Below are positions 1,299 through 46,037 of a stretch of DNA of 64,000 bases, piece by piece (position 1 is the stretch's first letter; each line of letters opens with the position of its first letter). Location: positions 50,128 to 114,127 of the forward strand of contig JAVXOZ010000002.1 of assembly GCA_036644995.1 (NCBI GenBank), written 5' to 3'. The DNA is from Clostridiales bacterium (lineage in GTDB: Bacteria; Bacillota; Dehalobacteriia; UBA7702). The position numbers were made by a program, and so were the translations under genes. A model generated the notes under the pieces. It was given only the letters and a program-made list of their open reading frames with translations. It did not search any database and was not told the origin of the DNA.

Positions 1299-1383
1299 TT
1301 AAAATTACTCCTTTTTTGGAATTATTGTATAAATTAACATAATTGCAAAATCAATTACAGTATAAAACAAAATTCCTTATTTT

Positions 1384-3066: not shown

Positions 3067-3077
3067 TTTTTACCTCG

Positions 3078-4181: not shown

Positions 4182-4237
4182 TGCGATATCCTTTCATATT
4201 TAATTGATGTTTTATGTAACCTTAAAGAATTGATGGT

Positions 4238-5008
4238 TTATGTAACTTTAAATAGTCTTTGGGCATTTTCTGTGGTAATTTGAGCCGCTTCCTCTGGGGA
4301 AATATCCCTTAGTTCCGCTATTTTTTCCGCCACAAACCGCACATATGCAGGTTCGTTGCGTTTGCCCCGATATTGCTTTGGGGTGAGGTAGGGGCAATCG
4401 GTTTCTATCACCAGTCTATCCAAAGGCATTTTTTTAACAATTATCGGTGTTTTTTTGGAATTGGCATAGGTTAAAGGCCCATCTACACCTATGTAAAAGC
4501 CCATTTTTATAATGGTTAAGGCATCCTCATAGCTGCCTGAATAACAGTGAAAAACACCTTTGTAGTCGTTTTTTTGCCGCTCCTCTTTGAGGATTTTTAA
4601 GGTGTCCGCCATGGCATCTCGGCTGTGGATTACAATGGGTAAACCCAATTTGTGGGCGAGATTCAGCTGCCTTTTAAAAACTATGGCTTGGATTTCTTTA
4701 TCGGTATCATCATAATGGTAATCCAAGCCTATTTCTCCTATTGCCACAACTTTGGGATTTTTTGCCCATTCTATAAGGCTTTCCTCCAAATCATCGCAAT
4801 AGGTGTGGGAATCGTTGGGGTGAACCCCTACCACAGCGTAAATGCCCTGATATTTTTCGGCAATTTCCACAGCGGATTTTGAGGTTTCCCAGTCGCAGCC
4901 CACTATATTCATACGCTCCACGCCATTTTTATGGGCATTTTCAATTACCTGCTCCATATCTTGGGCAAAAGCTTTATCGTTTATATGGCAATGGGTATCG
5001 TAAAGCAT
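4238..5008 (-). CDS. tatD: TatD-family metal-dependent hydrolase/DNase
   Basis: MLYDTHCHIND... with HxH metal ligands and the conserved TatD motifs. Immediately downstream of metG, as in Bacillus (metS-yabD). Confidence 0.9.
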   Translation of the reverse strand: MLYDTHCHINDKAFAQDMEQVIENAHKNGVERMNIVGCDWETSKSAVEIAEKYQGIYAVVGVHPNDSHTYCDDLEESLIEWAKNPKVVAIGEIGLDYHYDDTDKEIQAIVFKRQLNLAHKLGLPIVIHSRDAMADTLKILKEERQKNDYKGVFHCYSGSYEDALTIIKMGFYIGVDGPLTYANSKKTPIIVKKMPLDRLVIETDCPYLTPKQYRGKRNEPAYVRFVAEKIAELRDISPEEAAQITTENAQRLFKVT

Positions 5009-6981
5009 TATTTTACTCTGCCTCCGCTTTGAACTGCGTCTAAGGTGAGAATTTGCAAGTTTTCGCTGTCCGAGGCGGCTAAAATCATGCCTTGACTTTC
5101 AATGCCACGGAGCTTTGCGGGTTTTAAATTGGCAACCACCACCACATTTTTCCCCACTAAATCTTCTGGTGCGTAGTGTTGGGCAACCCCTGCCACCAGC
5201 TGCCTTTGTTCCTCACCAATTTTTATTTGCAGTTTTAAGAGTTTATCTGCACCTTCCACCTTTTCGGCTTCTAAAACAGTTGCCACTCTTAAATCTATTT
5301 TGGCAAAATCCTCAATGGATATTTCTTCTTTTGGACCTTCACTTTTGGCTTTTTTGGCTGCCCGTTCCGCTTCTTTTTTCGCTTTCTTTTCGGCTTTTAA
5401 TTTCGCTGCCTCTGCTTTTTGGGCATCGGCTTCTTCATCTTTAATCACTTCCAAGCGTGGGAAAATGGGTTCGCCACGGTCTACGGTGGTGTTTTCGGGG
5501 ATTTTTCCGTATTCTAAGCTATCCCAAGTTTGAATTTCCGTCTTTTCGCTGATGCCCAGTTGTGCCCAAACTTTTGCCGGGGTTTTGGGCATAAAGGGTG
5601 ATAGCATAATGGTGGAAAAACGCAGGGCTTCTGCCATGTTGTAGAGCACCGTTGCTAATTTAGCGGTATCTCCGTTTTTGTTTAAAGCCCAAGGAGCGGC
5701 TTCATCTATATATTTATTGGCTTTGCTTACGATTTTCCAAATCGCTGCCAAAGCGTTGTTAAATTCCAGTTTTTCCATGGCATCTGCCATTTCTTGGGGT
5801 ACGTTTTTGAAAAGTTCCATGAGTTCATCGTCAAACTCTGTTTTTTCTTGGGGTTGCAGCACTTTGCCGCCTTGAAATTTTTCCAGCATAGCTGTGGTTC
5901 TGCTTAAAAGATTGCCAAAGTCGTTGGCTAAATCCACATTTATGCGGCTGATTAAAATATCCTCGGAATAGTTGCCATCGCTGCCGAAAACAAATTCACG
6001 GAGCAGAAAATAACGCAAGGCATCGGTGCTGTATTTATCCGCCAAAACCATGGGGTCTACCACATTGCCTTTGCTTTTGGACATTTTGCCTTCGTTAACC
6101 AAAATCCAGCCGTGGGCAAAAACTTTTTTGGGTAGGGGCAAATCCAAAGCCATAAGCATAATGGGCCAAATAATGGTGTGGAAACGCACAATATCCTTAC
6201 CCACCAAATGCACATCTGCAGGCCAATATTTTTTGAATTTTTCATCATCTTCTTTGGTGTATCCCAAAGCGGAAATGTAGTTGGTAAGGGCATCCAGCCA
6301 AACGTAAATTACGTGTTTGGGGTCTTTGGGCACAGGTATACCCCAAGAAAAAGTGGTACGGGAAATGCTTAAATCATCCAGACCTTGTTTTACAAAATTA
6401 ATCATTTCATTTCTACGGGAAACAGGCTGTATGAAATCGGGGTTTTTATCTATATAATCCAAAAGACGTTGGGCATATTTTTCCATTTTGAAAAAATAGC
6501 TTTCCTCTTTAATTAAATCCACATTGCCGCCACAGTCGGGGCATTTGCCTTGACTATCCTTTATTTGGGTATCGGTGAAAAAGGTTTCGCAGGAAACGCA
6601 ATAGTGCCCTTGGTAGGAACCAAGGTAAATATCGCCCTGAGCTTGGAGTTTTTCAAAAATAGCCTGTACCACTTCTTCATGGCGAGGCTGGGTGGTGCGA
6701 ATAAAATCGTCGTAATCTATATCAAATTTGCCCCAAAGTTCCTGAAAAGTGGCGATGATGCCATCCACATATTTTAAAGGTTCCATATTGGCGGCTTCGG
6801 CACTGCGTTGGATTTTTTGACCGTGCTCATCGGAGCCTGTTAAAAAATAGGCATCATAACCACGCATTTTTTTGTAGCGTGTCATGGTATCTGCTGCCAC
6901 GGTGGTATAGCAATGGCCAATATGCAGGGTGGCACTGGGGTAGTAAATTGGGGTGGTAATATAAAAAGTGGGTTTAGACAT
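5008..6981 (-). CDS. metG: Methionyl-tRNA synthetase with C-terminal tRNA-binding (EMAP-like) domain
   Basis: 657 aa with HIGH (TLHIGH) and KMSKS motifs, a zinc knuckle CVSCETF...CPDCGG and a C-terminal tRNA-binding domain. Confidence 0.97.
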   Translation of the reverse strand: MSKPTFYITTPIYYPSATLHIGHCYTTVAADTMTRYKKMRGYDAYFLTGSDEHGQKIQRSAEAANMEPLKYVDGIIATFQELWGKFDIDYDDFIRTTQPRHEEVVQAIFEKLQAQGDIYLGSYQGHYCVSCETFFTDTQIKDSQGKCPDCGGNVDLIKEESYFFKMEKYAQRLLDYIDKNPDFIQPVSRRNEMINFVKQGLDDLSISRTTFSWGIPVPKDPKHVIYVWLDALTNYISALGYTKEDDEKFKKYWPADVHLVGKDIVRFHTIIWPIMLMALDLPLPKKVFAHGWILVNEGKMSKSKGNVVDPMVLADKYSTDALRYFLLREFVFGSDGNYSEDILISRINVDLANDFGNLLSRTTAMLEKFQGGKVLQPQEKTEFDDELMELFKNVPQEMADAMEKLEFNNALAAIWKIVSKANKYIDEAAPWALNKNGDTAKLATVLYNMAEALRFSTIMLSPFMPKTPAKVWAQLGISEKTEIQTWDSLEYGKIPENTTVDRGEPIFPRLEVIKDEEADAQKAEAAKLKAEKKAKKEAERAAKKAKSEGPKEEISIEDFAKIDLRVATVLEAEKVEGADKLLKLQIKIGEEQRQLVAGVAQHYAPEDLVGKNVVVVANLKPAKLRGIESQGMILAASDSENLQILTLDAVQSGGRVK

Positions 6982-7026
6982 TTTTTCTATCTCCTTCTTT
7001 AATCTTAAAATTTAACTTTTAAAAAA

Positions 7027-7866
7027 CTAATCTTCAAAAGTTAAGGGATAAATTTCGTTTTTTTTCATCCCGTATTTATCGGCTATAATTTGAGCGGCTA
7101 TTTTAGCTTTAACACCTTGTTCTGTTAAGGTATTTAGCTCTGTTTTCAATTTTTGGGGTGAGGGGATTTCCAAATTTTCGTTTTTGGGGGGTGGGGCAAT
7201 TACCAAAACCATCTCACCTTTTAATTCTGTATTTTCTGCCATTTCTATCATCGCCCCAAGGGGCATTCGGTAGTAGCTCTCATGGATTTTTGTTAATTCA
7301 CGGCATAAGGTGGCTTCCCTGTTGCCCAAAGCCGCAAAAATATCCGCCAAGTCCTTTGCCAGAGCGTGGGGAGCGATATATAAAATTAAGGTTGTGGGAA
7401 TTTTTTCTAAAATTGTTAAGCGCTCTTTGCGTTCTTTTTTTTGCTTGGGTAAAAACCCTTCAAAGGTAAAATAGCGGCAATCCTGTGCCGAGGCAGTTAA
7501 AGCAGAAAGCACCGCATTGCCACCGGGAATGGGGTGAATAGCCAAATTTTCCATAGCTGCGGCTTTAACTAAATCTTCCCCGGGGTCTGAAATTCCGGGG
7601 GTGCCTGCATCGCTAATTAAGGCGATGGATTTTCCCTCTTTTAGCAAGGTTAAAAATTCTTCACGGCGTTTTGCTGCATTGTGTTGGTGGTAGCTTACCA
7701 TAGGTGTTTTAATATTAAAATGGTGTAATAATATACCGCTGTGGCGAGTATCTTCGGCACCGATGAGGTCTACATTTTTTAATATTTCAATACCTCTTAT
7801 GGTCATATCCCCTAAATTGCCAATGGGGGTTGCCACCAAATACAAGCCGGGGTCTAATTCCGCCAT
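7027..7866 (-). CDS. rsmI: 16S rRNA (cytidine1402-2'-O)-methyltransferase
   Basis: LYLVATPIGNLGDMTIRGIEIL...IGAEDTRHSG tetrapyrrole-methylase fold typical of RsmI/YabC. Confidence 0.9.
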   Translation of the reverse strand: MAELDPGLYLVATPIGNLGDMTIRGIEILKNVDLIGAEDTRHSGILLHHFNIKTPMVSYHQHNAAKRREEFLTLLKEGKSIALISDAGTPGISDPGEDLVKAAAMENLAIHPIPGGNAVLSALTASAQDCRYFTFEGFLPKQKKERKERLTILEKIPTTLILYIAPHALAKDLADIFAALGNREATLCRELTKIHESYYRMPLGAMIEMAENTELKGEMVLVIAPPPKNENLEIPSPQKLKTELNTLTEQGVKAKIAAQIIADKYGMKKNEIYPLTFED

Positions 7867-8594
7867 GCTTTCTCCTTTAAAATCCTTTGGGTTTGTGGGG
7901 TTAATTCCCCATTTTTACAGTGTATTATTAAAGTTTCCTCTGTTGTTTGTGTGAGAGCAGAGGTTTTTATATATTCTAAAATTACTAAATATGGCTTTTT
8001 TTCCGCTTTGGATTTTAGCCATAAACGGCGATTTTCGGTAAATCCGCATTTTTTTGCCAAAGCCGTTGTTTCCTCTAAGCGTTGGGGTGGATAAGCCAAG
8101 GTTAAAGTGCCGTTATCCTTTAAAATTGCCCCACATTGTTGAAAAAATGTAGGACTGTCCCACTCTATTTCCACCTTTGCCATGGCTATTTTGGGGTTTT
8201 TTGGCAAGCGGCATTGATTTTTTTTGTAGTAGGGTGGGTTGGCTATTATCCCATGGAAAGCATTTTTGCCAAAGATTTTTTCTGCCTCCATGGCATTGCC
8301 TAAAACTACTTGGATATCGGTGTTGTTTTCCGCCATGTTGAATGTTGCCAAAGCTACATTTTCTGCATCTATTTCCAAGGCTGTAATTTGGGATAATGGG
8401 CTTTTTCCCTGTATTAGCAGGGGTAAAATGCCGTTGCCCGTGCCTATATCCAATATTTTGGGGTGATTATTGGGGTTGAAAAAGCAAGCTAAAATCACCG
8501 CATCCAAAGAAAAGCAAAAGCCTTTTTTATTTTGATAAAGGCTAAAGCCGCCCCAAATGAGGTCATCTTTACGAAGATTTTCGTTATTCTTCAT
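7854..8594 (-). CDS. SAM-dependent methyltransferase, tRNA1(Val) (adenine37-N6)-methyltransferase-like (YabB/YfiC family)
   Basis: DIGTGNGILPLL SAM motif and NPPY motif; positional equivalent of B. subtilis yabB. Confidence 0.8.
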   Translation of the reverse strand: MKNNENLRKDDLIWGGFSLYQNKKGFCFSLDAVILACFFNPNNHPKILDIGTGNGILPLLIQGKSPLSQITALEIDAENVALATFNMAENNTDIQVVLGNAMEAEKIFGKNAFHGIIANPPYYKKNQCRLPKNPKIAMAKVEIEWDSPTFFQQCGAILKDNGTLTLAYPPQRLEETTALAKKCGFTENRRLWLKSKAEKKPYLVILEYIKTSALTQTTEETLIIHCKNGELTPQTQRILKEKAWRN

Positions 8595-8892
8595 CTTTGT
8601 GGTTGTTTTCGGTGTTTTTTTCTTTTAATTTTTCTTTTTCCATAAAGGAAACGCAAAATAGGCATTCGCCTTCACGGACTTCCCCAAAGTGACTGGGACA
8701 AACGTGAAACCCTGCATCAAACAAGGCAAGTAGGTTGCTTTTGCCCGATACCGCCATATTTTTTTTGCGTATTATCGCCTGCATGGAGATGTTATCCGCT
8801 TCTAATTGTTCAACATATTTTCTAATAGTTGCCAATTCATCACCCATGGCTTTGATTTTTTCTTCCAACTCTAAAAGTGCTTGACCCAGCAT
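8584..8892 (-). CDS. yabA: DNA replication initiation-control protein YabA
   Basis: 102 aa; N-terminal coiled coil and C-terminal Zn-binding Cys/His cluster (HVCPSHFGE...CLFC). Conserved position between yaaT and yabB. Confidence 0.8.
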   Translation of the reverse strand: MLGQALLELEEKIKAMGDELATIRKYVEQLEADNISMQAIIRKKNMAVSGKSNLLALFDAGFHVCPSHFGEVREGECLFCVSFMEKEKLKEKNTENNHKDEE

Positions 8893-8917
8893 GGATTATC
8901 CCCCCTGTGCACAGTTT

Positions 8918-9634
8918 TTATTTATCTTCTACAATCTCTTTATTTAAGATTTCTTCCACAGGTAAATCTGCTTCTTTTTTTCTGACCGGTGGTACTACGG
9001 AATCGTCGTTTTCATATTTTAAGCAGCACATGAGTCTGCCGCAAATACCCGATATTTTCCCCGGATTTAAGGAGAGATTTTGGTGTTTTGCCATTTTGAT
9101 GGAAACAGGCTGAAACTCATCTAAAACGCTGTGACAGCACAGTACACGGCCACAAGAGGCTATGCCACCCAGCATTTTTGCCTCATCACGGACACCAATT
9201 TGTCTAAGCTCAATACGGGTGCGGAAAATTCCTGCCAAGTCCTTAACCAATTCCCGAAAATCCACTCTGCCATCGGCGGTGAAATAAAAGATGATTTTGC
9301 TTACATCAAAGGTATATTCCACATCTATAAGCTTCATTTCTAAATTATTGGCACGTATTTTTTCCAAACAAACTTTAAAGGCTTCCTTTTCCTTTTCCTT
9401 ATTTTCTTTGTTGGTGGCTTCATCTTCTTCGGTGGCTTTTCTCAGCACATCTTTTAAGGGCTGCACTACTTTGTTTTCACAAACTTCTCTTGGTGGTATA
9501 ACCACATTGCCAAATTCCACACCACGGGCTGTTTCCACTATTACGTTGTCGTGGAGTGCGATGTTGAAATTAACAGGGTTAAAATAATAAATTTTACCCG
9601 CTTGTTTAAAGCGGACACCTACAATGGTTTCCAT
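8918..9634 (-). CDS. ricT: PSP1-domain protein (YaaT/RicT, stage 0 sporulation/RNase Y regulator family)
   Basis: METIVGVRFKQAGKIYYFNP... PSP1 C-terminal domain; conserved holB-yaaT-yabA synteny. Confidence 0.85.
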   Translation of the reverse strand: METIVGVRFKQAGKIYYFNPVNFNIALHDNVIVETARGVEFGNVVIPPREVCENKVVQPLKDVLRKATEEDEATNKENKEKEKEAFKVCLEKIRANNLEMKLIDVEYTFDVSKIIFYFTADGRVDFRELVKDLAGIFRTRIELRQIGVRDEAKMLGGIASCGRVLCCHSVLDEFQPVSIKMAKHQNLSLNPGKISGICGRLMCCLKYENDDSVVPPVRKKEADLPVEEILNKEIVEDK

Positions 9635-9667
9635 AAAAAATCCTCTTTTTTCTTTAGGGTAGTGTGT

Positions 9668-10507
9668 TTAGTTTACCCTATTTTTTTCTTTTATTGCCAA
9701 AAATAAATTCTCGGCAACAAGGCGGGTTGTTAATTGATATTCCAAGTACATCATAGCTTTATTGGTTTCTTCCCAAAGCTTAAGTAGAATATCATCCCCA
9801 AATTCCGAACTATTTAAAAGATAAGCTGCTTCCCCTGTGTGGGAAACTCTATATCCGTAATTTCTGCTTAAAATTTCTGCCATGGCGGCGATGATGGTTT
9901 TTAGTTTTTCACGGTCTGTTTCTTTGTTTTTTTCTTTGGCGTAGGTTTCTGCGGTTAAAAGCAAATAATCCATATTGTTTTGGGGTAAGGAGGTTAAAAG
10001 TTCAAAGGCTTCCTCCAAATTTTCGCTTTTTAGGGTTTTTGCCTCGCCATTATATCGCAAAATACGGCAGCGGCTTTCAATGGTGGCCAAAGTTTTATCC
10101 CCATTGGTGGAAAGGAGTAAAAAAACGGTATTTTCCACGGGTTCTTCCAAGGTTTTTAATAGGGCATTGGCGCAAACTTCGGTTAATTTATCTGCATCTA
10201 TAATCATAAAAATGCGAAATTCCCCTTCTTGGGCGGAGAACTGCACTGTTTTTATTAAATCTCTTATTTGTTTTATTAAATATGTGGTTTTTTCCGGACG
10301 AATTACAGTGAAATCGCTGAAGCATTCATTTTTTCCCAAGGTGCAGGGGCGGCATTTGCCACAAGGCATTGAATTTTTAGGGTTTTTGCAATTTAGGCTT
10401 AAAGCAAAATCCATGGCATCTTTTAAAATCTCATCTTTTTCGCCGTATAGCAAATAAGCGTGGCTGATATTTTTTTCTTTTAGGTCTGTTTTTAATTCTT
10501 GGTGCAT
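9668..10507 (-). CDS. holB: DNA polymerase III delta' subunit
   Basis: HAYLLYG... clamp-loader AAA+ fold with Zn module CGKCRPC; overlaps tmk as in the Bacillus tmk-holB operon. Confidence 0.85.
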   Translation of the reverse strand: MHQELKTDLKEKNISHAYLLYGEKDEILKDAMDFALSLNCKNPKNSMPCGKCRPCTLGKNECFSDFTVIRPEKTTYLIKQIRDLIKTVQFSAQEGEFRIFMIIDADKLTEVCANALLKTLEEPVENTVFLLLSTNGDKTLATIESRCRILRYNGEAKTLKSENLEEAFELLTSLPQNNMDYLLLTAETYAKEKNKETDREKLKTIIAAMAEILSRNYGYRVSHTGEAAYLLNSSEFGDDILLKLWEETNKAMMYLEYQLTTRLVAENLFLAIKEKNRVN

Positions 10508-11130
10508 AAAAAAGGCTCCAATTTTTCTGCTATTTCGCTAAATACTTTTTTCGGGGTATTTTCGCCGTTTACTGTGATAATATTTTCACTTTTGGCTGCA
10601 AGAGCCGAATATCCTTGACGAACATCATTGAAAAAAATATTTTGTTCCTGTTCTAAACGGTCGGGCTTTTCTTGGCGGTTATTATTTATCCGCTCTCTAC
10701 CCTTTTCCGGGCTGATATCTATAACAATGGTGATATTTGGCTCTAAGCCTTGGGTTGCTAAATCGTTGAGTTTTTCAATGGTGGCAATATCTAAATTCCT
10801 GCCATAGCCTTGGTAGGCAATGGTGGATAATGTGTAGCGATCCGATATTACAACTTTGCCCATATCTAAATTGGGCAGGATAATTTCTTTTATATGCTGT
10901 GCTCTGTCTGCGGCGTAAAGCAGCAGCTCTGTAAGGTAGCTCATCCCTTTATTATCCCCATCCAGCAGTAAATTGCGGATTTTTTCCCCCAAAGCTGTGC
11001 CACCTGGCTCACGGGTTACCACAACCTCATAGCCTAAGCTTTGGCACCATTCTTTAACTTTGGTTATTTGGCAGGATTTACCGGCGCCGTCTATTCCCTC
11101 AAAGGCAATAAAAATACCTTGTTTTGTCAT
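10492..11130 (-). CDS. tmk: Thymidylate kinase
   Basis: MTKQGIFIAFEGIDGAGKS P-loop plus a DRY/LID region. Confidence 0.95.
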   Translation of the reverse strand: MTKQGIFIAFEGIDGAGKSCQITKVKEWCQSLGYEVVVTREPGGTALGEKIRNLLLDGDNKGMSYLTELLLYAADRAQHIKEIILPNLDMGKVVISDRYTLSTIAYQGYGRNLDIATIEKLNDLATQGLEPNITIVIDISPEKGRERINNNRQEKPDRLEQEQNIFFNDVRQGYSALAAKSENIITVNGENTPKKVFSEIAEKLEPFLCTKN

Positions 11131-12555: not shown

Positions 12556-13003
12556 AATAGATGATGTGGAACAGATTTATCAGCTTATTATGGATTATGC
12601 CAATGAAGGGCTGATGTTGGCAAGACCACGGCAAGGGATTTATGCAGGTATCCGTGAATATATTGTAGGGGAAAATTCCACAGGTGAGGTGGTTGCCATT
12701 GGTGCTTTGCGGATTTTGTGGAGCGATTTGGCGGAAATTTGCTCCTTAGCTGTGCGTGAGCCTTATTTGAAAAAAGGGATTGGCAAAAAAATAGTTGAAT
12801 TACTGGAAAATGAAGCCGAGGATTTACGGATTCCCCAAATTTTTGCTTTAACCTATCAACAAGGGTTCTTCTTGAAATGCGGCTTTAATTCCGTGGAACA
12901 CAGTGCCTTGCCCCAAAAAGTTTGGCGTGATTGCATAGATTGCCCTAAGTTTCCTGATTGTGATGAGAAGGCGGTATTAAAAAATACTTCCCATAATGGG
13001 TGA
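12536..13003 (+). CDS. argA: GNAT N-acetyltransferase, short-form N-acetylglutamate synthase (S-NAGS/ArgA-like)
   Basis: 155 aa. The block VVAIGALRILWSDLAEICSLAV...GIGKKIVELL...IFALTYQQGFF is colinear with my recollection of mycobacterial short ArgA (GALHVLWSDLGEI...GIG..IV..LL). Lies immediately upstream of argH. Confidence 0.6.
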   Translation: MIYRKAKIDDVEQIYQLIMDYANEGLMLARPRQGIYAGIREYIVGENSTGEVVAIGALRILWSDLAEICSLAVREPYLKKGIGKKIVELLENEAEDLRIPQIFALTYQQGFFLKCGFNSVEHSALPQKVWRDCIDCPKFPDCDEKAVLKNTSHNG

Positions 13004-13268
13004 TAGCAGGGAAACTCCCCAAACTGAGACCGCTTATGTATTATATATACACTGCACGTCCTCATTTTGGTGTGTTCCCCTGTTCTAACCCATTCTTGAA
13101 AGTATTTTTGTTGCCCATAGGAGATAGCAGGGAAACTTTTTTGAAAGTATTTGTAGTGCCCAAAGCATATAATAAGGAAACTTTTTTAGCAAGGTTAACT
13201 TGTTTTAAAAATTTCCATATAAAATTTAAGATGATTTATTGGACAAGTTGTAATAACGGAGGTTTGTG

Positions 13269-17057: not shown

Positions 17058-17181
17058 AGGCTGTTGATAAAGTCTGATATTCGGTAAAATCCCTTCCCAT
17101 CCACTGCCTATGCACATATAGGTACACTGCACAGTGGCTGTTCAGGGAGTTTTACCGAATCTAAGGCTTTCTTAACAGCCT
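17058..17181 (+). repeat. Interspersed ~124 bp imperfect-palindromic repeat, copy A
   Basis: AGGCTGTTGATAAAGTCTGATATTCGGTAAAATCCC...GGGAGTTTTACCGAATCTAAGGCTTTCTTAACAGCCT; terminal inverted repeats with a palindromic core. Followed by GACAATCTG. Bracketed by the 17 bp direct repeat TTAAAAAATTTACGGGT (17041-57 and 17194-210). Confidence 0.9.
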
Positions 17182-17310
17182 GACAATCTGCACTTAAAAA
17201 ATTTACGGGTTTATCTGCATTAAAGCACATTGCATCTCCATATTTTTAGGTTTTAGTGAGTTTAAGCTTTCTTAAATCTTTGGAATTTATGGATTATTGC
17301 TAAATTAAAT

Positions 17311-18459: not shown

Positions 18460-18573
18460 AGGCTGTTTATAAAGTCTGATATTCGGTAAAATCCCTTCCC
18501 ACCCACTGCTTATGTACATCTAAGTATACTGCATAGCCGCTGCTCAGGGAGTTTTACCGAATCTAAGGCTTTC
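18460..18573 (+). repeat. Interspersed palindromic repeat, copy B
   Basis: AGGCTGTTTATAAAGTCTGATATTCGGTAAAATCCCTTCCCACCCACTGCTTATGTACATCTAAGTATACTGCATAGCCGCTGCTCAGGGAGTTTTACCGAATCTAAGGCTTTCTTAACAGCCT, with the right-hand extension ATCTTGCCAAAAAACTATGTTTTT. Confidence 0.9.
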
Positions 18574-18668
18574 TTAACAGCCTTACATCTTGCCAAAAAA
18601 CTATGTTTTTCAAAAATCTTTTTAATCACTCATTATTGGCTTGGGTATTTGGTAAAAGCCAAAGGAAT

Positions 18669-18731
18669 ATTCAGTGTTCTATATCTAACATTCAGTGTTC
18701 TATATCTAACATTCAGTGTTCTATATCTCAA
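18669..18731. repeat. Tandem direct repeat, 21 bp x 3 (ATTCAGTGTTCTATATCTAAC)
   Basis: Two exact copies plus one variant copy in the spacer between repeat copy B and the end of arcC. Confidence 0.9.
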
Positions 18732-19916: not shown

Positions 19917-20039
19917 AGGCTGTGGATAAAGTTTGCTATTGGGCAAAATCCCTTCATCGTGACTGCTTATGTACATCTAAGTACATAAGCAGACGCTGCT
20001 CGGGGAGTTTTACCGAATCTAAGGCTTTCTTATCAGCCT
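19917..20039 (+). repeat. Interspersed palindromic repeat, copy C (inside the agmatine deiminase operon)
   Basis: AGGCTGTGGATAAAGTTTGCTATTGGGCAAAATCCC...TGCTTATGTACATCTAAGTACATAAGCAG...GGGGAGTTTTACCGAATCTAAGGCTTTCTTATCAGCCT. Extension ...TTTTTGACAATCTG runs to 20075. Bracketed by the 20 bp direct repeat AGATTGATGAAAATTGCACT (19896-915 and 20076-095). Confidence 0.9.
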
Positions 20040-20133
20040 AATATCTTGGCAAAAAACTATGTTTTTGACAATCTGAGATTGATGAAAATTGCACTAACGG
20101 CTTTTAAATCTGTTGATAGTAATTGGTGTTATT

Positions 20134-25543: not shown

Positions 25544-25820
25544 ATTAACCAAATATATTACAGTAATTTGTGATACAATGGCATAATTATTAAGTAGACA
25601 TCTGAATTTAATCAATCTATAATAAACTTAAACTATGTTAAATTATTTTGAAAAGACTTTGGGCTTTTGAAAAATATGATAATAGGTAAATTCGCCAATC
25701 CCACCTTGCTTATGCACAATAAAGCACACAGCAAGTTTTAGGGTTGGCGTGTTTCCCTGTTTTAGGCTTAAGCCAAAACGCACCACTTGTATGATTGCAT
25801 TTTGTAGGACGAGGTTATTT

Positions 25821-36477: not shown

Positions 36478-36600
36478 AGGCTGTGGATAAAGTTTGATAT
36501 TTGGCAAAATCCCTTCCCACCCACTGCTTATGTACATATAGGTACACTGCACAGTGGCTGTTCAGGAGTTTTACCGAATCTAAGCCTTTCTTAACAGCCT
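36478..36600 (+). repeat. Interspersed palindromic repeat, copy D
   Basis: AGGCTGTGGATAAAGTTTGATATTTGGCAAAATCCC...GGAGTTTTACCGAATCTAAGCCTTTCTTAACAGCCT + GACAATCTGA. Confidence 0.9.
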
Positions 36601-36696
36601 GACAATCTGAATTATATAAGGTTACGCAAATTTTTTAGAAACCTAATAACTGTTTTAATTGCTAACTAAAACCAAATATTTGATATGAGGTGATTT

Positions 36697-36874: not shown

Positions 36875-37660
36875 GTGAATAATACATTTCCGTGGAAGCA
36901 ATTACAAATGCCCTATGAATTTTTAATGGCGGTTCTTGCTTTTATAAACTTATATTTTTATTATTTTGAATTTACCGGCGCATTGGATCCTCAAGGGGTT
37001 GAGGTGGCTCATGTTATTGATATTGCTACGATTGTGATTTTTTCCCTTGATTATTTAGTGCGGCTTTATTTAGCCAAAGATAAAAAACATTATTTACGGC
37101 ACAATGTTTTGGACCTTATTGCTTTGATTCCTTTAAATCCTGTATTTAGAGGGGCAAGGCTGTTTCGTTGTGTGGTGCTTTTTGCCAGATTTTTTAAAAG
37201 GCTCCGTTCTTTTAGTTCGGTAAATATGTTTCTTTATGTTTCTTTTGGCACTATTGTTGTGCTTTTAACCTCGGCTTTATTGGTGGCTCCCTTGGAAGGA
37301 ATGACTTTTTTTGAAGGAATTTGGTGGGGGGTTGTAACCATAGCCACTGTGGGATATGGGGATTTTATTCCTGTTACCACTCCGGGGCGGATAATTGCCA
37401 TGGTTTTAATGTTTACCGGTATTGGTTTTTTGAGTTTTTTAACAGGTACTGTTACCACCCATTATGTAAATGCCCGTATGGAAAGGGTGAGTATTCATTC
37501 CCAGCGTGGCATTATAAAGCATTATCAAAAACAACTTTATCATTTTGATGATATGACGGGTAAGGATATAGATGATATGTGCCATGCTTTAAATGCCTTG
37601 AAAAGCCAAGATTTAAAGGAAAAGGCGGCTAAGGAAAAGCCTAAAACCATTGGTGACTGA
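36875..37660 (+). CDS. Voltage-sensor-type 6TM potassium channel (TVGYGD selectivity filter, S4 with R every third residue)
   Basis: Pore VVTIATVGYGDFIPVT; S4-like RGARLFRCVVLFARFFKRLRS. Confidence 0.85.
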   Translation: MNNTFPWKQLQMPYEFLMAVLAFINLYFYYFEFTGALDPQGVEVAHVIDIATIVIFSLDYLVRLYLAKDKKHYLRHNVLDLIALIPLNPVFRGARLFRCVVLFARFFKRLRSFSSVNMFLYVSFGTIVVLLTSALLVAPLEGMTFFEGIWWGVVTIATVGYGDFIPVTTPGRIIAMVLMFTGIGFLSFLTGTVTTHYVNARMERVSIHSQRGIIKHYQKQLYHFDDMTGKDIDDMCHALNALKSQDLKEKAAKEKPKTIGD

Positions 37661-37881
37661 TTATTTTAGATTTTAACAAATTCTGGTATTGAGATAAAAC
37701 TTTGAGTTTTTTGAAATATAATATGGAAAAGATAAGGAAATTGCAGTTTTTGGGAATTTGTCGGTATATGTGATTTTATAAAGCTATGGGTAAAATATTT
37801 GGTTTATTGGTCTATATATAAGGAAGAAAAAAATAAATAATTATATTGGGGTTGCCCAGAGTCCACTTGAGTTTTTTATTG

Positions 37882-37946
37882 AAGTGAATCCTTTTCATTA
37901 GACATATGTTTTGTTTAACGAAAGGGATTCACTTTAATTTTTATTT
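37882..37946 (+). terminator. Intrinsic terminator-like hairpin (13 bp stem AAGTGAATCCTTT/AAAGGGATTCACTT) + T-rich tail
   Basis: Inverted repeat followed by TAATTTTTATTT; ~220 bp downstream of the channel gene. Confidence 0.45.
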
Positions 37947-38074
37947 AGGGGCTTTTTTATGGTTAAATAAAGGGTAAAGCCATATTTTTTAATATTAAGA
38001 AGTGATGCAATAATAGAGTAAGGCATATTTTTTATTTAAGGGTATAATTTGGCAATAATTGGAGAACATAATTT

Positions 38075-38445
38075 AGGCTTTGGATAAAGTCTGATATTCG
38101 GCAAAATCCCTTCATCGTGACCGCTTATGTACATTTAAGTACACTGCACGTCCCCGATTCCGTGAGTTTTGCCGAATCTAAGCCTTTCTTCAAAGCCTAT
38201 GATTAGGATAAAGTCTGATATTCGGCAAAATCCCTTCATCGTGACCGCTTATGTACATTTAAGTACACTGCACGTCCCCGATTCCGAGAGTTTTACCGAA
38301 TCTAAGCCTTTCTTCACAGCCTATGATTAGGATAAAGTCTGATATTCGGCAAAATCCCTTCTCAGCCACTGCTTATGTACATCTATGTACACTGCATAGC
38401 CGCTGCTCAGGGAGTTTTGCCGAATCTAAGCCTTTCTTAACAGTC
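38075..38445 (+). repeat. Three tandem copies (E1 38075-38198, E2 38205-38321, E3 38328-38445) of the interspersed palindromic repeat, immediately upstream of the rpoB promoter
   Basis: Each unit is ~120 bp (AGG(CTTTGG)ATAAAGTCTGATATTCGGCAAAATCCC...GAGTTTT(A/G)CCGAATCTAAGCCTTTCTT(C/A)A(A/C)AGCCT). Units are separated by ATGATT. The last is followed by GACAATCTGA. Confidence 0.9.
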
Positions 38446-38504
38446 TGACAATCTGAGAACATAATTTTGACTGTTTTATTTTTTTAAGTTTTTTAAGATT
38501 AAGG

Positions 38505-38533
38505 TTGACAATTTTGCTTAGTAATGGTATTAT
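38505..38533 (+). promoter_or_regulatory. Sigma-A promoter for rpoB-rpoC (TTGACA -17- TGgTATTAT)
   Basis: Perfect -35 TTGACA (38505-10), 17 nt spacer, extended -10 TGGTATTAT (38525-33); ~200 nt leader to the rpoB ATG. Confidence 0.6.
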
Positions 38534-38740
38534 ATTATAATGCCTTATTTATACAATAGGTACAATAGGCATTGAAATTTGATAATTTTCCATGAGGTGG
38601 CTGTCCGGTTTTATTAAGGCTAATTGCCAATGAAACAATTTCTCGGGCTTGCGGTAAGGCGAGAAATGGACACTTCGGGGTCTTGCGGTAAGGCTTTGAA
38701 AAGTCTCTCTTAATTAAATATTTGAGAGGTGGTTTGCTAC

Positions 38741-41700
38741 ATGTCTAATGACGGACTTGGAGTGATAAAGCGAAGAGATTATTCCAGAATCAAAGAAGTC
38801 CTGGAAATGCCTGATTTGATTGAGATACAAAAGCGATCATATCAGTGGTTTTTGGATGAAGGGCTGAAAACGATTTTTGAGGATATTTCTCCTATTCAAG
38901 ATTTTACGGGTAAAATGTCTTTGGAATTCATTGACTATGCCTTGGGCGAAGAAAAGTATAGTGTGGAAGAATGTAAAGACAGGGATTCTACCTATGCCGC
39001 ACCTTTAAAGGTTAAGGTTCGCTTAATCAATAAGGAAACAGGCGAAGTTAAAGAACAAGAAGTGTTTTTGGGGGATTTCCACCTGATGACAGACCGTGGC
39101 ACCTTTATTGTTAATGGTGCAGAGCGTGTTATTGTTAGCCAGTTGGTGCGTTCACCCGGTGTTTATTTAAGTCACAATAAAGATTCTAACAGTGGTGCGG
39201 ATATTTATGGTGCTACCATTATACCTAACCGTGGTGCTTGGTTGGAATATGAAACCGATGCTGCAGGTTCTATTTATGTAAGAATAGACAGAACCAGAAA
39301 ACTCCCTGCCACTGTTATTTTAAGAGCAATGGGTTTGGGTAGTGATGAAGAAATTTTGGCTCTATCCGGGGATAATCCCCATGTTATTGCTACTTTGGAA
39401 AAAGATAGCACCAATAACGAATCTGAAGCCTTGATTGAAATTTATAAAAAATTACGCCCCGGTGAGCCACCAACTGTGGATTCGGCTCGCAGTCTTTTAT
39501 ACACCCTTTTCTTTGACCCCAAACGTTATGATTTGGGCAATGTGGGTCGCTATAAATTGGATAAAAAATTAGGCCATGGCATTTTTAAAAGAATAAATGC
39601 CGAAGGCAAAGTTTGGGATGATGAAACCCAAGCATACCTTGATTATGAAGGCAATATCGAAAAAGTGCGGAATGATTATATTAAATATTTAACCCGTGCT
39701 GACATTTTTGAAACCTTTAAAAAGTTTTTACTCTTGATGGATGGTGTTTTAGAACCTGATGACATCGACCATTTGGGCAATCGCCGCTTACGTTGCGTAG
39801 GTGAGTTATTGCAAAATCAATTCAGAATCGGGCTTTCCCGTATGGAAAGAGTAGTTAAGGAAAGAATGACTATTCAAGATACTGAATCTATTACCCCTCA
39901 GGTTTTAATTAATATTCGCCCTGTGGTGGCAGCTTTAAAAGAATTTTTTGGTTCCAGCCAGTTATCCCAATTTATGGACCAAAATAATCCCTTGGCTGAA
40001 TTAACACACAAACGTCGTCTTTCTGCACTGGGCCCCGGTGGTCTTTCTCGGGAAAGGGCAGGGTTTGAGGTTCGTGACGTTCACCATTCTCACTACGGCA
40101 GAATGTGCCCCATTGAAACCCCTGAAGGTCCTAATATTGGGCTTATTGGCTCCTTGAGTACATTTGCTCGGATTAATACCTATGGCTTTATTGAAACTCC
40201 TTATCGTAAAGTTGATAAGGAACTAAATGTGGTTACAAAAACCATTGATTATCTTACTGCGGATGTGGAAGATAATTATGTTGTAGCCCAAGCCAATGAA
40301 CCTTTGGATGCCGAAGGTCACTTTGAACATGAAAGGGTTAATGTGCGTTTTGGGCATGAAATTACTTCTATGCCCCCGAACCGTGTTGACTATATGGATG
40401 TTAGTCCTAAGCAGGTTATTTCTGTTGCTGCTGGGCTTATTCCTTTCTTGGAACATGATGATGCCAACCGTGCTTTGATGGGTGCTAATATGCAACGTCA
40501 GGCTGTTCCCCTTTTGCGTACCGAAGCTCCTTTTGTGGGCACGGGGTTAGAAGGTAAAACTGCGGTTGATTCCCGTGTTGTGGAAGTGGCTAAAGAAGCC
40601 GGTGTTATCCATCGGGTTGATGGGGACACCATTGTGGTAAAACATGAAGATGGCTCTTTAGAGGAGCATCATCTTTCTAAATACAAACGCTCCAACCAAG
40701 GAACTTGCGTAAACCAACGTCCCATTGTGCACAAAGGTGCAGTGGTGGAAAAAGGGCAGGTTTTGGCTGATGGCCCTGCCACAGACCGTGGGGAGTTGGC
40801 ACTTGGACGCAATGTGGTTATTGCCTTTATGACATGGGAAGGCTATAACTATGAAGATGCTATACTTTTAAGTGAAAAATTAGTGAGAGATGATTATTTC
40901 ACCTCTATACATATTGAAGAATACGAGTGCGATGCCCGTGATACCAAGCTTGGCCCTGAAGAAATAACTCGGGATATTCCCAATGTTGGGGATGAAATTT
41001 TAAAAGATTTGGACGCCAGCGGTGTTATCCGCATTGGTACAGAGGTGCGTTCCGGTGATATTTTGGTAGGAAAAGTTACACCCAAGGGTGAAACAGAGCT
41101 TACTGCGGAAGAACGCTTGCTCCGTGCGATATTCGGTGAAAAAGCCAGAGAAGTTAGGGATACATCTTTACGTGTTCCCCATGGTGAAAATGGTAAAGTT
41201 GTTGATATTAGGGTATTTACCAGAGCCAATGGTGATGAGCTTTCCCCCGGGGTTAATAAGCTTGTTCGTGTTTATGTAGCACAGAAACGTAAAATTTCTG
41301 TTGGTGATAAAATGGCAGGTCGCCATGGTAATAAAGGGGTGGTATCACGTATACTTCCCGAAGCTAATATGCCTTTTCTTCCCGATGGTACCCCTGTTGA
41401 TATCGTGCTGAATCCTCTTGGTGTTCCCTCTCGTATGAACATTGGGCAGGTTTTGGAGTGTCACTTGGGTTGGGCTGCTAAAAATTTGGGTATCCATGTG
41501 GCTACCCCGGTGTTTGACGGTGCTAACGAAGAAGATATTGTGGGTGCTTTGGAAGAAGCCGGTTTGGATTACACCGGTAAAACTATATTGAGGGATGGCC
41601 GTACCGGTTTGCCCTTTGATAACCCCGTTACCGTTGGTATTATGTATATGCTGAAGCTTCACCATCTTGTGGATGATAAAATTCATGCTCGTTCTACTGG

Positions 41701-42313
41701 CCCTTATTCCCTCGTTACCCAGCAGCCATTGGGCGGTAAAGCTCAGTTTGGCGGACAGCGTTTCGGCGAAATGGAAGTTTGGGCTTTAGAAGCCTATGGT
41801 GCTGCTTATACCTTACAGGAAATTTTAACGGTAAAATCCGATGACGTGATTGGTCGTGTTAAAACTTATGAAGCCATTGTTAAAGGTGAAAATGTTCCCG
41901 AACCCGGTCTTCCGGAATCCTTTAAGGTTTTAATTAAAGAATTACAAAGCTTGTGCTTAGATGTTAAAGTATTATCTGCCAATGATGAAGAGATTGAAAT
42001 TCGTGACCTTGACGATGATTTAGATATTCCCAATGAACGTATGGATTATAATGAAGATTTGACCAAGGGGGGCGGTTCTCGTTTCCGTGCCGACGCTGCT
42101 GTTGTAGTAGATGAAACCGGTGAGGAAATAGGAAACTTTGAAAACTCTGATGATAATGACGCTGCTGATGAAAATATGTCCTTAAATGAAATGGAGGATA
42201 TTGATATTGACATTGACGCAGATTTGGATGTTTTAGAAGGATTGGGCCTTGACGACAGTGATTTGGATGAATTAGTTCTCGACGATATTGACACTGTGGA
42301 TGATGACCTTTAA
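38741..42313 (+). CDS. rpoB: DNA-directed RNA polymerase beta subunit
   Basis: [42 protein letters not shown] aligns with the Bacillus RpoB N-terminus. ATG 38741 after RBS GAGAGGTGG. Long acidic C-terminal tail. Confidence 0.97.
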
Positions 42314-42350: not shown

Positions 42351-45300
42351 TTGATAGATGTAAGAAATTTTGATCGTATGCGTATTGGCCTTGCCTCTAA
42401 AGAACAGATTTTAGAGTGGTCTTACGGTGAGGTTAAAAAACCTGAAACAATAAATTATAGAACACTAAAACCCGAAAGGGACGGACTTTTTTGTGAACGC
42501 ATATTCGGACCCCAAAAGGACTGGGAATGTCATTGCGGTAAATATAAAAGAGTTCGTTATAAAGGCGTTGTTTGCGAACGGTGCGGCGTGGAAGTAACCC
42601 GTGCCAAGGTGCGTAGAGAACGTATGGGCCATATTGAATTGGCCGCCCCTGTATCACACATTTGGTATTTTAAAGGTATTCCCAGCAGAATGGGGCTTTT
42701 ATTGGATATGTCCCCCCGTTCTTTGGAAAAAATTCTCTATTTTGTTTCTTATGTGGTTTTGGATAGCGGCGAAACTCCGTTGGTTAATAAACAACTCCTC
42801 ACAGAAACCGAATACAGAGAAGCCAGAGATGAATACGGTGATGGATTTAAAGCCGGCATGGGTGCTGAAGCCGTAAAAGATATGCTAAAATCCCTTAATT
42901 TGGAATCTTTGGCCAAGGAATTAAGAGATGAATTTAAGGAAGTTACCGGTCAACGCCGTATTCGTGCCATTCGTCGCTTAGAAGTGGTGGAAGCCTTTTT
43001 AAGCTCCGGGAATAAGCCTGAATGGATGGTTCTTGATGTGGTGCCGGTTATTCCTCCGGAAGTTCGCCCCATGGTGCAGTTGGACGGCGGCAGATTTGCC
43101 ACATCTGACTTAAACGACCTTTACAGAAGGGTTATTAACAGAAATAACCGCTTAAAAAGACTTTTGGATTTAGGCGCACCGGATATTATTGTGCGGAATG
43201 AAAAACGTATGCTTCAAGAAGCAGTTGATGCTTTGATAGATAATGGCCGCCGTGGTCGCCCTGTGACAGGCCCCGGGAACAGACCTTTGAAATCTTTGAG
43301 TGATATGCTTAAAGGTAAGCAAGGGCGTTTCCGCCAAAACTTACTGGGTAAACGTGTGGACTATTCCGGTCGTTCCGTTATTGTGGTTGGTCCGGAATTA
43401 AAAATGCACCAATGCGGTTTACCTAAGGAAATGGCTTTGGAGCTTTTTAAACCATTTGTAATGAAATGCTTGGTTAAAGATGGCTTGGCACATAATATTA
43501 AAAGTGCAAAACGCATGGTTGAGCGGGTTCGCCCCGAGGTTTGGGATGTTTTGGAAGAAGTAATTAAAGACCATCCCGTACTTTTAAACCGTGCACCTAC
43601 ACTTCATAGATTGGGTATTCAGGCTTTTGAGCCTACACTGGTTGAAGGCAGAGCTTTGCAGATACATCCTTTGGTTTGTACTGCTTACAATGCGGACTTT
43701 GACGGTGACCAAATGGCTGTACACGTACCTTTATCTGCGGAAGCCCAAGCTGAAGCTCGTTTGCTTATGCTTTCTTCTTATAATATTCTCAACCCCAAAG
43801 ACGGTCATCCCGTTGCTGTGCCTACCCAAGATATGGTTCTTGGCTCCTATTATCTTACGGCTTTAAGCGAAGGAGCTAAGGGTGAAAACAAATGCTATTG
43901 CAGCTTTGATGAAGCTTTTATGGCATATCAAAACGACGACCTTGACCTTCATGCTGAAATTGAAATCATTAAGCCCAAAGAATGGGATTATATGATGGTT
44001 AAAAAGCAAAGGGTTGAATTTGAAAAACGTGAAAACGGTTTATTTAACCGTGTGCGTACCACTGTTGGCAGAATGATTTTCAATTATAATATTCCTATCC
44101 CCAGAGAAATGGGTTACTATAATTGTGAGATTGATAAAAAGACTTTGGGTAATATCGTGGATCGCTGTTATCGCATTATGGGTATTTCCAAAGCCGCAAA
44201 TTTACTGGATGGGATTAAATCCATGGGTTATTCCACTTCTACCCAAGCAGGTATCACCGTTGGGTTGCAGGATATTAAAGTTCCAGCCAGAAAAAAAGAA
44301 ATTATGGCTACTGCGGATAAAGACGTAGCTGTGGTTGAAGATTTGTTCCGCCGTGGTTTAGTTACGGAAAATGAACGTTATAATAAAGTTATTGAAATTT
44401 GGACTGCTGCCACCGATGAAGTTACCGGCGAATTGATGGGAAGCCTTGATAAATTTAATCCTATTTATATGATGGCAAATTCCGGTGCCCGTGGTAATGT
44501 TCAGCAAATTCGACAACTGGCAGGTACCCGTGGTTTGATGGCTGACCCATCCGGAAAAATCATTGACTTACCAATTAAAGCTAACTTCCGTGAAGGCCTT
44601 AATGTTTTGGAATTCTTTATTTCCACACATGGTGCCAGAAAAGGGTTGGCAGATACTGCATTGCGTACCGCCGACTCCGGTTATTTAACACGCCGTCTTG
44701 TTGACGTTGCCCAAGAAGTTATTGTAAGGGAAGATGATTGCGGTTGCACAACGGGTATTTGGGTTGAAGAAATACCCAATATCGAACCCCTTTCCGAACG
44801 TGTGGAAGGCAGAGTTGCTGCGGCTGATTTGATTAATGAGCATACCGGCGAAGTTATTGTTGCCGCCGGTGAGGAGTTCTTGGATACTCATCTACCTATT
44901 ATTGATGCTTATATGGCAACCTTACCTCCGGAAAAACGCACTGTAAATATTCGCTCGGTGCTGACCTGCAAGAGCCGTTATGGTGTTTGTAAAAAATGCT
45001 ATGGCAGAAATCTTGCCACCGGTTCCATGGTTGATATCGGTGAAGCTGTTGGTACCATTGCCGCTCAATCCATTGGTGAGCCGGGTACTCAGTTAACCAT
45101 GCGTACTTTCCATACCGGTGGTGTTGCCGGTGATGATATTACTCAAGGTTTGCCCCGTGTTGAAGAATTGTTTGAAGCCAGAAAACCGAAATTCCAAGGT
45201 TTGCTAACGGAAGTTGACGGTACTGTGCATTTGGAAGATTATAAAAATCAACGCAAAATTATCATTATGGATAAAGGTGAAGAAAAAGCAGCTTATTTGG

Positions 45301-46037
45301 CTCCTTACAATTCCCGCATCAAGATTAAAGAAGGGGATTTTGTGGAAGCCGGTGATGTTTTGACCGAAGGTTCCATTAACCCCCATGATGTATTGAAGGT
45401 TAAAGGGGTAAAAGGTGTTCACCAATATTTATTACAGGAAGTTCAAAGTGTTTACCGTTTGCAAGGTGTTGATATCAACGATAAACATATTGAAATAATG
45501 GTTCGCCAAATGTTGAAAAAGGTGCGCATTGAAGAAACCGGCGATGGTGATATGCTACCCGGTGCTTTGGTGGATGCCAATGGCTTCGAAAAGAAAAATG
45601 AAGAACTCATTGCCCAAGGTTTGGAACCTGCCACTGCTTCCCCTGTTTTACTGGGTATTACCAAGGCGGCTTTGGCTACGGAATCCTTCCTTTCTGCGGC
45701 ATCTTTCCAAGAAACCACTCGTGTTTTAACCGATGCCGCCATTAAAGGCAAAGTTGATCCCTTAATCGGTTTGAAAGAAAATGTTATTATCGGTAAATTA
45801 ATTCCTGCGGGCACCGGTATGCATTGTTATCGTGATGTGGAAATTCAAAGTATCGAAGAAAGCTTGGCAGGCCCTGCTGTGGTTATTGAAGAAGAAGGTG
45901 CCCTTGGTGAAGTAATTCAGGAAGGTGCCCAAAGCGTGATATCCGAGAATATTGAGACTGTTGTACCCGAAAAAATAGGGGAAATAGGCGAGATTGATCC
46001 CGGTGAAATATTGCTTGACAATAAAACCTTAGAGTGA
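42351..46037 (+). CDS. rpoC: DNA-directed RNA polymerase beta' subunit
   Basis: TTG start; [54 protein letters not shown], Zn motifs, NADFDGD catalytic loop. Confidence 0.97.

Follow-up and report, generated by a model that had tools for sequence, protein, structure and literature searches.

A stretch of 64,000 nucleotides from a Clostridiales bacterium (contig JAVXOZ010000002.1; hereafter "the window") carries, just upstream of rpoB, a head-to-tail array of three hairpin units that is probably a passenger: three units of a mobile, non-coding hairpin repeat resembling a miniature inverted-repeat transposable element (MITE), lying upstream of an older rpoB promoter. The sequences on either side of the array indicate a single insertion into a spacer in which a potassium (K+) channel gene and rpoB were already joined. 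An earlier, sequence-only reading of this locus had proposed that the array might serve as an insulator, terminator, protein-binding platform or recombination scar, and had named a neutral passenger as the scenario that would speak against those roles—it is this scenario that we find best supported.

The tandem arrangement itself was borne out by both Tandem Repeats Finder, which reports a period of 124 with 2.9 copies and 91% matches across 38082-38438, and a covariance model (CM) of the family, which resolves three complete 124-nt units in the same direction across 38075-38446, scoring 135-145 bits (Table 1). The earlier description of units 2 and 3 as truncated at their 5' ends was mistaken, as all three are of full length and only the first 8 nt differ, with ATGATTAG standing in place of AGGCTTTG in the family alignment. 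In the identity matrix, units 1 and 2 are 95% identical, whereas unit 3 matches them at 81-84% (just 67% over the central 50 nt) and is closer to the copies at 18460 and on contig L092, at 89%; this difference in subtype argues that the array is no simple recent triplication. Nor is the spacer the roughly 1 kb of repeat-filled DNA first described—only ~390 of its 1,080 bp is repeat, and the remainder is unique, including a strong terminator-like hairpin (37878-37938). The gap between the end of the array (38446) and a near-consensus promoter is 59 bp, with the insertion ~40-50 bp upstream of the -35 element.

The case for mobility comes from the flanks. Direct duplications of 13-24 bp border the repeat at five of seven independent loci, the other two showing only candidates of 8-10 bp, and cognate flanks score 13-20 where the best of 56 non-cognate comparisons reaches 9. 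The upstream copy of the duplication abuts the start of the hairpin and the downstream copy begins right after the conserved tail GACAATCTG; beyond a weak preference for T before AGGCT, upstream flanks share nothing more. At rpoB, one 13-bp duplication surrounds the whole array, implying that the K+ channel and rpoB sides were already contiguous at the time of insertion.

Table 1. Features of the array, its surroundings and the repeat family (positions in window coordinates unless a same-species contig is named).
Feature	Position	Strand	Flanking duplication	Details
K+ channel family gene	36875-37660	+		261 aa; Pfam Ion_trans_2 and Ion_trans; NCBI "potassium channel family protein"
Terminator-like hairpin then U-rich tract	37878-37947	+		between channel gene and array; -32.4 kcal/mol, z = -8.1, then UUUAAUUUUUAUUU
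Left flanking direct duplication	38062-38074	+	13 bp, GAGAACATAATTT	13/13 exact vs 38455-38467
Array unit 1	38075-38198	+		subtype B; full 124-nt hairpin; canonical 5' end AGGCTTTG; CM 145.2 bits
Array unit 2	38199-38322	+		subtype B; 95% identity to unit 1; first 8 nt ATGATTAG; CM 142.4 bits
Array unit 3	38323-38446	+		subtype C; CM 135.4 bits
Conserved 3' tail GACAATCTG	38447-38455	+		final G is first base of flanking duplication
Right flanking direct duplication	38455-38467	+	13 bp, GAGAACATAATTT	exact partner of left copy
rpoB promoter-like site	38505-38533	+		-35 TTGACA, 17-nt spacer, TG-extended -10 TATTAT; 11/12 matches, best in region
Predicted rpoB leader, ~200 nt	38541-38740	+		-57.7 kcal/mol, z = -2.9; 3' part -33.8 kcal/mol, z = -3.1
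rpoB	38741-42313	+		1190 aa, ATG at 38741; Pfam; exact protein in NCBI metagenome-assembled genomes
rpoC, then str/S10/spc operons	rpoC 42351-46037			Pfam
Diverged subfamily copy	12984-13105	+		compensated arms, conserved apex; CM 71.5 bits, E = 1.8e-17; fold -41.2 kcal/mol, z = -5.8
Dispersed copy	17058-17190	+	19 bp, ACTTAAAAAATTTACGGGT	
Dispersed copy with optional 3' module	18460-18610	+		between arcC and BAAT-type hydrolase gene (both - strand)
Dispersed copy with optional 3' module	19917-20075	+	20 bp, AGATTGATGAAAATTGCACT	aguA-arcC spacer (genes - strand)
Dispersed copy	36478-36609	+		upstream of small ORF and K+ channel gene
Copy beyond window (L090a)	L090:6181-6303		about 22-24 bp, TAGCAGATTAACTACTAC core	same-species contig
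Dimer beyond window	L090:9663-9898			next to bioD
Copy beyond window	L092:20173-20296		about 20-22 bp, ATCA(TC)ACAACAAAGTTGTGATA-type, one indel	downstream of rpsI

The array belongs to a dispersed family, which we surveyed over ~95-100 kb of this species by adding to the window those same-species contigs—metagenome-assembled genomes (MAGs) labelled "Clostridiales bacterium" at NCBI and Logan assemblies sharing exact window proteins—that extend beyond both of its ends. Two probes of 21-25 nt from the unit each matched the window seven times, always on the + strand, against an expectation of 0. In all, the window holds 7 units at 5 loci, and the surveyed region at least 8 canonical loci together with 3 diverged copies, including weaker covariance-model matches at 25661-25782 and L085:6776-6897. 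Every copy is intergenic, and those other than the array have no consistent position relative to promoters. The element opens with AGGCTGTKGATAAAG... and closes with ...GACAATCTG, a tail also seen at 17182, 20067, 36601, L090a and L092. In some copies an optional 3' module, ATCTTGCCAAAAAACTATGTTTTTT, precedes the tail (18584-18610, 20040-20066, L092:20297-20324 and L090:9630-9662); this module is a small A6/T6 hairpin placed between a GACATCTTG-like sequence and GACAATCTG, a layout that could suggest duplication of the 9-nt tail by a mini-insertion. At the bioD locus the similar 8-nt linkers TATATTAG and TGTATTAG join two units, and every junction between tandem units has such a linker in place of the canonical 5' AGGCTGTG (38191-38206, 38315-38330, L081:4626-4640 and L090:9779-9795), a similar linker recurring in this way at two independent loci. 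A coding function was rejected: small open reading frames (ORFs) inside the units are not conserved between copies, other copies carrying stops. One annotated hypothetical protein, RSC99_06990, is an ORF derived from the repeat.

Searches further afield returned little. Rfam gave 0 matches in the whole window, and only chance-level ones over 37600-38800 at E <= 10, while exact-pattern scans gave 0 matches in genome_contigs, in metagenome_contigs (two patterns) and in viral_contigs, collections that do not hold the source genome; the sets scanned for the repeat comprised plasmids, phages, GTDB representative genomes, JGI metagenomes and IMG/VR. Plasmids and phages yielded no BLAST match to either the unit or the array, the covariance model found nothing outside the species in 80 rpoB loci of relatives (1.35 Mb), and a protein search with the translated repeat gave a single match, from the same species. 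Within the collections searched, the repeat appears to be a species-specific, lineage-restricted element.

Each unit folds into one long, imperfect hairpin (-57.5 kcal/mol, z = -9.3; both strands give about -57 kcal/mol when folded as RNA), whose arms pair over ~45 nt each and whose right end has the extra, unpaired 9-nt tail. Pairing holds in 94.9% of pair cells over the 13 copies, compared with 30-45% when partners are slid, and both-sided changes occupy 19 cells, compared with 8.6 +/- 2.0 in shuffles (0 of 500 shuffles reach 19). The hairpin is maintained by compensatory changes, and three conserved G-U pairs favour the + strand. Diverged subfamilies (12984-13105, 25661-25782 and L085:6776-6897) keep the hairpin despite changed arms; the apex has hardly altered in them (GACCGCTTATGTA...TACACTGCACGTCC at 13k), and all are co-oriented with the main family.

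In window coordinates, co-orientation in fact extends to all 8 canonical loci and all 3 diverged copies, the placement of L085:6776-6897 relative to the window depending on a join in L085 that is possibly a misjoin. The covariance model scores the + strand of each copy at about twice the - strand. Four loci have neighbouring genes on the - strand, among them the one in the spacer of the aguA-arcC operon, showing that the orientation of the repeat is independent of local transcription. With a positive GC skew throughout the window and the ribosomal operons on the + strand, this strand is probably the leading one.

These properties place the repeat closest to, yet not squarely within, the bacterial MITEs. 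Like Correia/NEMIS in Neisseria, RUP and SPRITE in Streptococcus pneumoniae and bcr1 in Bacillus cereus, it is ~130 nt long, non-coding and intergenic, with terminal inverted repeats that form one long hairpin, multiple dispersed copies bearing target duplications and a species-restricted distribution. Unlike them, it makes duplications of variable length (10-24 bp rather than a fixed 2-9 bp), is strictly co-oriented, carries an asymmetric 9-nt 3' tail and forms arrays with specific 8-nt linkers. The only bacterial elements that we could document as generating long, variable direct repeats on insertion are IS1634 and IS1549, for which lengths of 8-514 bp have been reported with no mechanistic model (PMC2266710). 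Those are, however, autonomous insertion sequences (ISs) of 1.5-2 kb with a DDE transposase; duplications in the IS1634 family are typically 5-6 bp, its end consensus C-----YT has no obvious match in the ends of the repeat, and no IS1634-type transposase was seen in the window or fetched loci.

Other families of extragenic hairpins fit less well. Repetitive extragenic palindromic (REP) sequences, bacterial interspersed mosaic elements (BIMEs) and the REPIN-RAYT system (REP doublets and their tyrosine transposase) likewise consist of hairpin repeats that occur singly or in tandem with linker motifs and break assemblies. REP units are, in contrast, 20-40 nt long with a GTAG head, alternate in orientation and lack flank duplications; here the 124-nt unit starts (T)AGGCT, repeats directly and is flanked by duplications, on which grounds we rejected this assignment, and no RAYT (Y1 transposase) gene was found in the window or fetched loci. 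Palindrome-associated transposable elements (PATEs) derived from IS200/IS605 share a strand-specific orientation relative to replication and a dependence on DNA hairpins, but each of their ends has its own subterminal hairpin and insertion takes place, with no duplication, 3' of a 4-5-nt target; they were set aside given the 13-24 bp duplications present here. An integron attC site, defined by a 5' R'' (RYYYAAC), a 3' R' (GTTRRRY) and cassette arrays next to intI, was also rejected: the polarity of the arms is reversed (5' GTTGATA ... TCTTAAC 3'), these bases vary between copies and the neighbours are housekeeping genes.

On the evidence of the flanks, the element has spread through the intergenic DNA of the species, its insertions duplicating 10-24 bp of target, and one insertion landed in the K+ channel-rpoB spacer, where the block now holds three units within one duplication. 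Mobilisation may have been in trans, by a transposase cutting its target with a long, variable stagger in a replication-coupled manner. The array probably lies outside the rpoB transcription unit and has at most a minor influence on that gene. Several observations sit uneasily with this account. Duplications of variable length are unusual for MITEs, and simple insertion with subsequent local duplication does not account for the recurrent 8-nt linkers or the composite array. Neither empty sites nor presence-absence polymorphism was seen among same-species contigs spanning the loci, every one of which carries the element and which differ solely in having 2 or 3 units in the array, leaving the flank duplications as the sole evidence of mobility. 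No autonomous element with matching ends was found in the ~100 kb of the genome within reach, and a contig from a different strain that holds units 1 and 3 only (L086) could reflect assembly collapse. Finally, the array may have some effect on rpoB.

To a different mechanism we assign a small though appreciable probability: that the repeat represents an undescribed form of movement of small hairpin DNA, coupled to the replication fork, which inserts in one orientation on leading-strand sequence and adds units through the 8-nt linker. On this view the insertion mechanism would have produced the array at rpoB as a by-product, and the variability of the 10-24 bp duplications would suggest a gap-fill or target-primed step over a fixed staggered cut. 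In favour of the MITE-type account, orientation bias relative to replication is common among ISs of Firmicutes, where it has been linked to binding between transposase and sliding clamp (PMC3971601). Co-orientation and long variable duplications thus each have precedent among DDE elements, and we found no described MITE that combines the two.

For the regulatory roles proposed for the array we found no positive evidence. That it acts as an insulator or terminator, stopping read-through from the channel gene and replacing control lost along with the L10 operon, is in our view improbable. The location between two co-directional genes and the stable RNA fold of the units on either strand speak for such a role; on the other hand, every unit is followed by ATGATTAG or GACAATCTG and not by a U tract, and a terminator scan of the region flags none of them. 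A terminator-type hairpin complete with U tract already sits 130 bp upstream of the array, between it and the channel gene, which speaks against the insulator proposed by the sequence-only reading, as the absence of U tracts speaks against its terminator. The same element, moreover, lies inside the aguA-arcC operon and upstream of other opposite-strand genes, and the contig of one strain has just 2 units.

That the array modulates the rpoB promoter as a binding platform, be it for a nucleoid protein or for a domesticated transposase, seems somewhat less probable again. E. coli REP/BIME elements bind IHF and gyrase, the arms and apex of the repeat are conserved even in the diverged subfamily, and the array lies only ~50 bp from the -35 element. 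Against this, other copies show no consistent placement relative to promoters, no candidate binding protein was identified, and the A/T-rich stretch preceding the -35 element (38468-38504) falls outside the duplication and is native DNA rather than part of the insertion.

We regard it as quite unlikely that a structured non-coding RNA is expressed from the array, with the units as its genes or as portions of it. Compensatory changes and the G-U pairs on the + strand are compatible with an RNA, and the - strand has a promoter-like site of its own inside the unit (TTGTCA-17-TAGATT, 9/12). Yet the - strand hairpin is nearly as stable, promoter and terminator are not consistent among units, no Rfam family matches even at the permissive threshold above, and flank duplications and assembly breaks point to a mobile DNA repeat.

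Very little weight attaches to the suggestion that recombination between repeats parted rpoB from rplKAJL and left the array as its scar. In its favour, the repeats are numerous, share one orientation and confuse assemblies (contigs L081 and L085 join loci through them), and the genome is a rearranged one, with an inversion of origin-proximal genes in the left part of the window. A recombinant element would, however, show unmatched flanks, whereas an intact 13-bp duplication brackets the whole array, and the contiguity of the two sides at insertion argues against a scar.

Least credible of all is an assembly artefact in which a collapsed repeat was expanded, for although short-read MAG contigs do break or misjoin at the repeat, the three units are distinct at diagnostic positions, and the 1/2 and 2/3 junctions both reappear in another assembly, in the independent contigs L084 and L087. 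Contig ends of L082-L084, L087 and L090 fall inside the repeat. L081 joins the K+ channel through the repeat to bioD, and L085 joins a fab/collagen-like region through it to rpoB; both are most likely repeat-induced misassemblies. For users of public short-read MAGs of this species, synteny at repeat sites is consequently unreliable.

The rpoB promoter also speaks for passenger status. The sequence-only reading was right that a near-consensus promoter (TTGACA-17-TGgTATTAT) closely follows the array and heads a predicted leader of ~200 nt with a duplicated motif: two exact copies of the 13-mer CTTGCGGTAAGGC stand at 38648 and 38682. It was right only in part that rpoB has come to rely on a promoter and leader of its own, since a strong promoter-like site is indeed present but is no consequence of rearrangement. 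Promoter-like sites with a TTGAC-type -35 and a TAnnAT-type -10 (9-12 of 12 matches) lie 110-370 nt before rpoB in all 21 relatives scanned, with an extended TG on the top-ranked site in 19, and the pattern holds in relatives both with and without rplL upstream. The presence of the same class of promoter throughout, rplL-linked relatives included, implies that a dedicated promoter and leader are ancestral in this part of the Firmicutes; the leader in the window is thus an old arrangement in lineage-specific form rather than something new that the rearrangement made necessary. A dedicated promoter and a long hairpin leader before rpoB also recall the E. coli rplL-rpoB attenuator and the internal rpoB promoters of Firmicutes, with the difference that the L10 operon no longer lies upstream here.

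The leader is predicted to form two adjacent hairpins (38638-38667 and 38668-38706) whose apical halves carry CTTGCGGTAAGGC and which lack a U tract, and a third (38707-38728) that pairs with the GAGAGG ribosome-binding site. In 11 of 76 relatives, the leader contains a terminator-like hairpin of the form GCRAGG-loop-CCTTGCTTT (these being 11 of 18 matches to the pattern in 2.7 Mb), positioned 53-119 nt before the start in ten of them and 241 nt in L009; no Rfam family matches it, and it may be an undescribed attenuator of the rpoB leader. Its carriers (L003-L009, L012, L038, L042 and L049; for example L005:9885-9925) belong to Peptococcaceae, Desulfosporosinus and Negativicutes, and the hairpin is often followed by NNNTGT. 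In the window, the relatives' GCRAGG...CCTTGCTTTT is replaced by the two tandem hairpins, the second of which resembles GGGTGATCTTGCGGTAAGAGCCTTG of L049. As a widely conserved leader motif, CTTGCGGTAAG shows no enrichment (2 matches, 1.06 expected), and comparison of the leader with the rplL-rpoB spacers of relatives by blastn-short and nhmmer gave nothing significant.

One way in which the array might touch rpoB lies at its 3' edge. There, TTAACA combines with CATAAT in the flank to make a promoter-like site with 10/12 matches (38437-38465), and this predicted site, the sole candidate for an effect of the array, could act as a weak second promoter into rpoB. The outward-facing -35-like TTAACA is a feature of the element's 3' end generally, and with A/T-rich flanks it also makes a promoter-like site at 36589-36620.

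As first described, the gene upstream of rpoB is a K+ channel gene rather than rplKAJL; no ribosomal protein gene occurs in the annotated 9 kb upstream, and the genes preceding the channel encode FAD oxidoreductases, shikimate kinase and lgt. Among GTDB species representatives, the closest RpoB N-terminus, at 75% identity, is that of L001, a MAG whose L10 is nearest to Dehalobacterium. Among the 15 inspected relatives from the class Clostridia or from unclassified Bacillota, 13 have the canonical order nusG-rplK-rplA-rplJ-rplL-rpoB, and rplL is also missing upstream of rpoB in two Peptococcaceae MAGs, L002 and L009. The unlinking of rpoB is thus a real, minority state that is not unique to this species, and loss of linkage to the L10 operon has been recurrent in this group. 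L002 and L009 have TG-extended promoter-like sites (L002:8263-8291 and L009:4103-4131) with leaders of 275-370 nt, and B. stercoris (L014), a comparator from Bacilli, has the usual rplL-ybxB-rpoB order. A search for the rplKAJL of this species through L10 homologues gave 0 of 10 candidate clusters with its accessions.

Elsewhere in the window, positions 1-11130 and the contigs continuing beyond (L088 and L090) carry on the - strand a block of genes normally found near the origin on the leading strand (tmk, holB, yabA, rsmI, metG and tatD), and GC skew is near zero at 4-12 kb, a pattern suggesting that this rearranged genome underwent an inversion fairly recently. Just past the arcC stop, in the spacer between arcC and the BAAT-type hydrolase gene (18666-18728), a 21-nt sequence, AACATTCAGTGTTCTATATCT, is repeated in tandem three times, exactly or nearly so; these repeats could be operator sites. 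Two 45-nt tandem repeats with 78% identity (13093-13182) directly follow the diverged hairpin upstream of argH.

For the regulation of rpoB, these results are deflationary, in that the array needs no regulatory explanation. For mobile DNA, they describe a clean, species-restricted hairpin element whose long variable duplications and strict co-orientation are atypical of described MITEs, a combination that hints at replication-coupled insertion. They also show that the cell tolerates an element of this kind within ~50 bp of a promoter that ranks among its most important.

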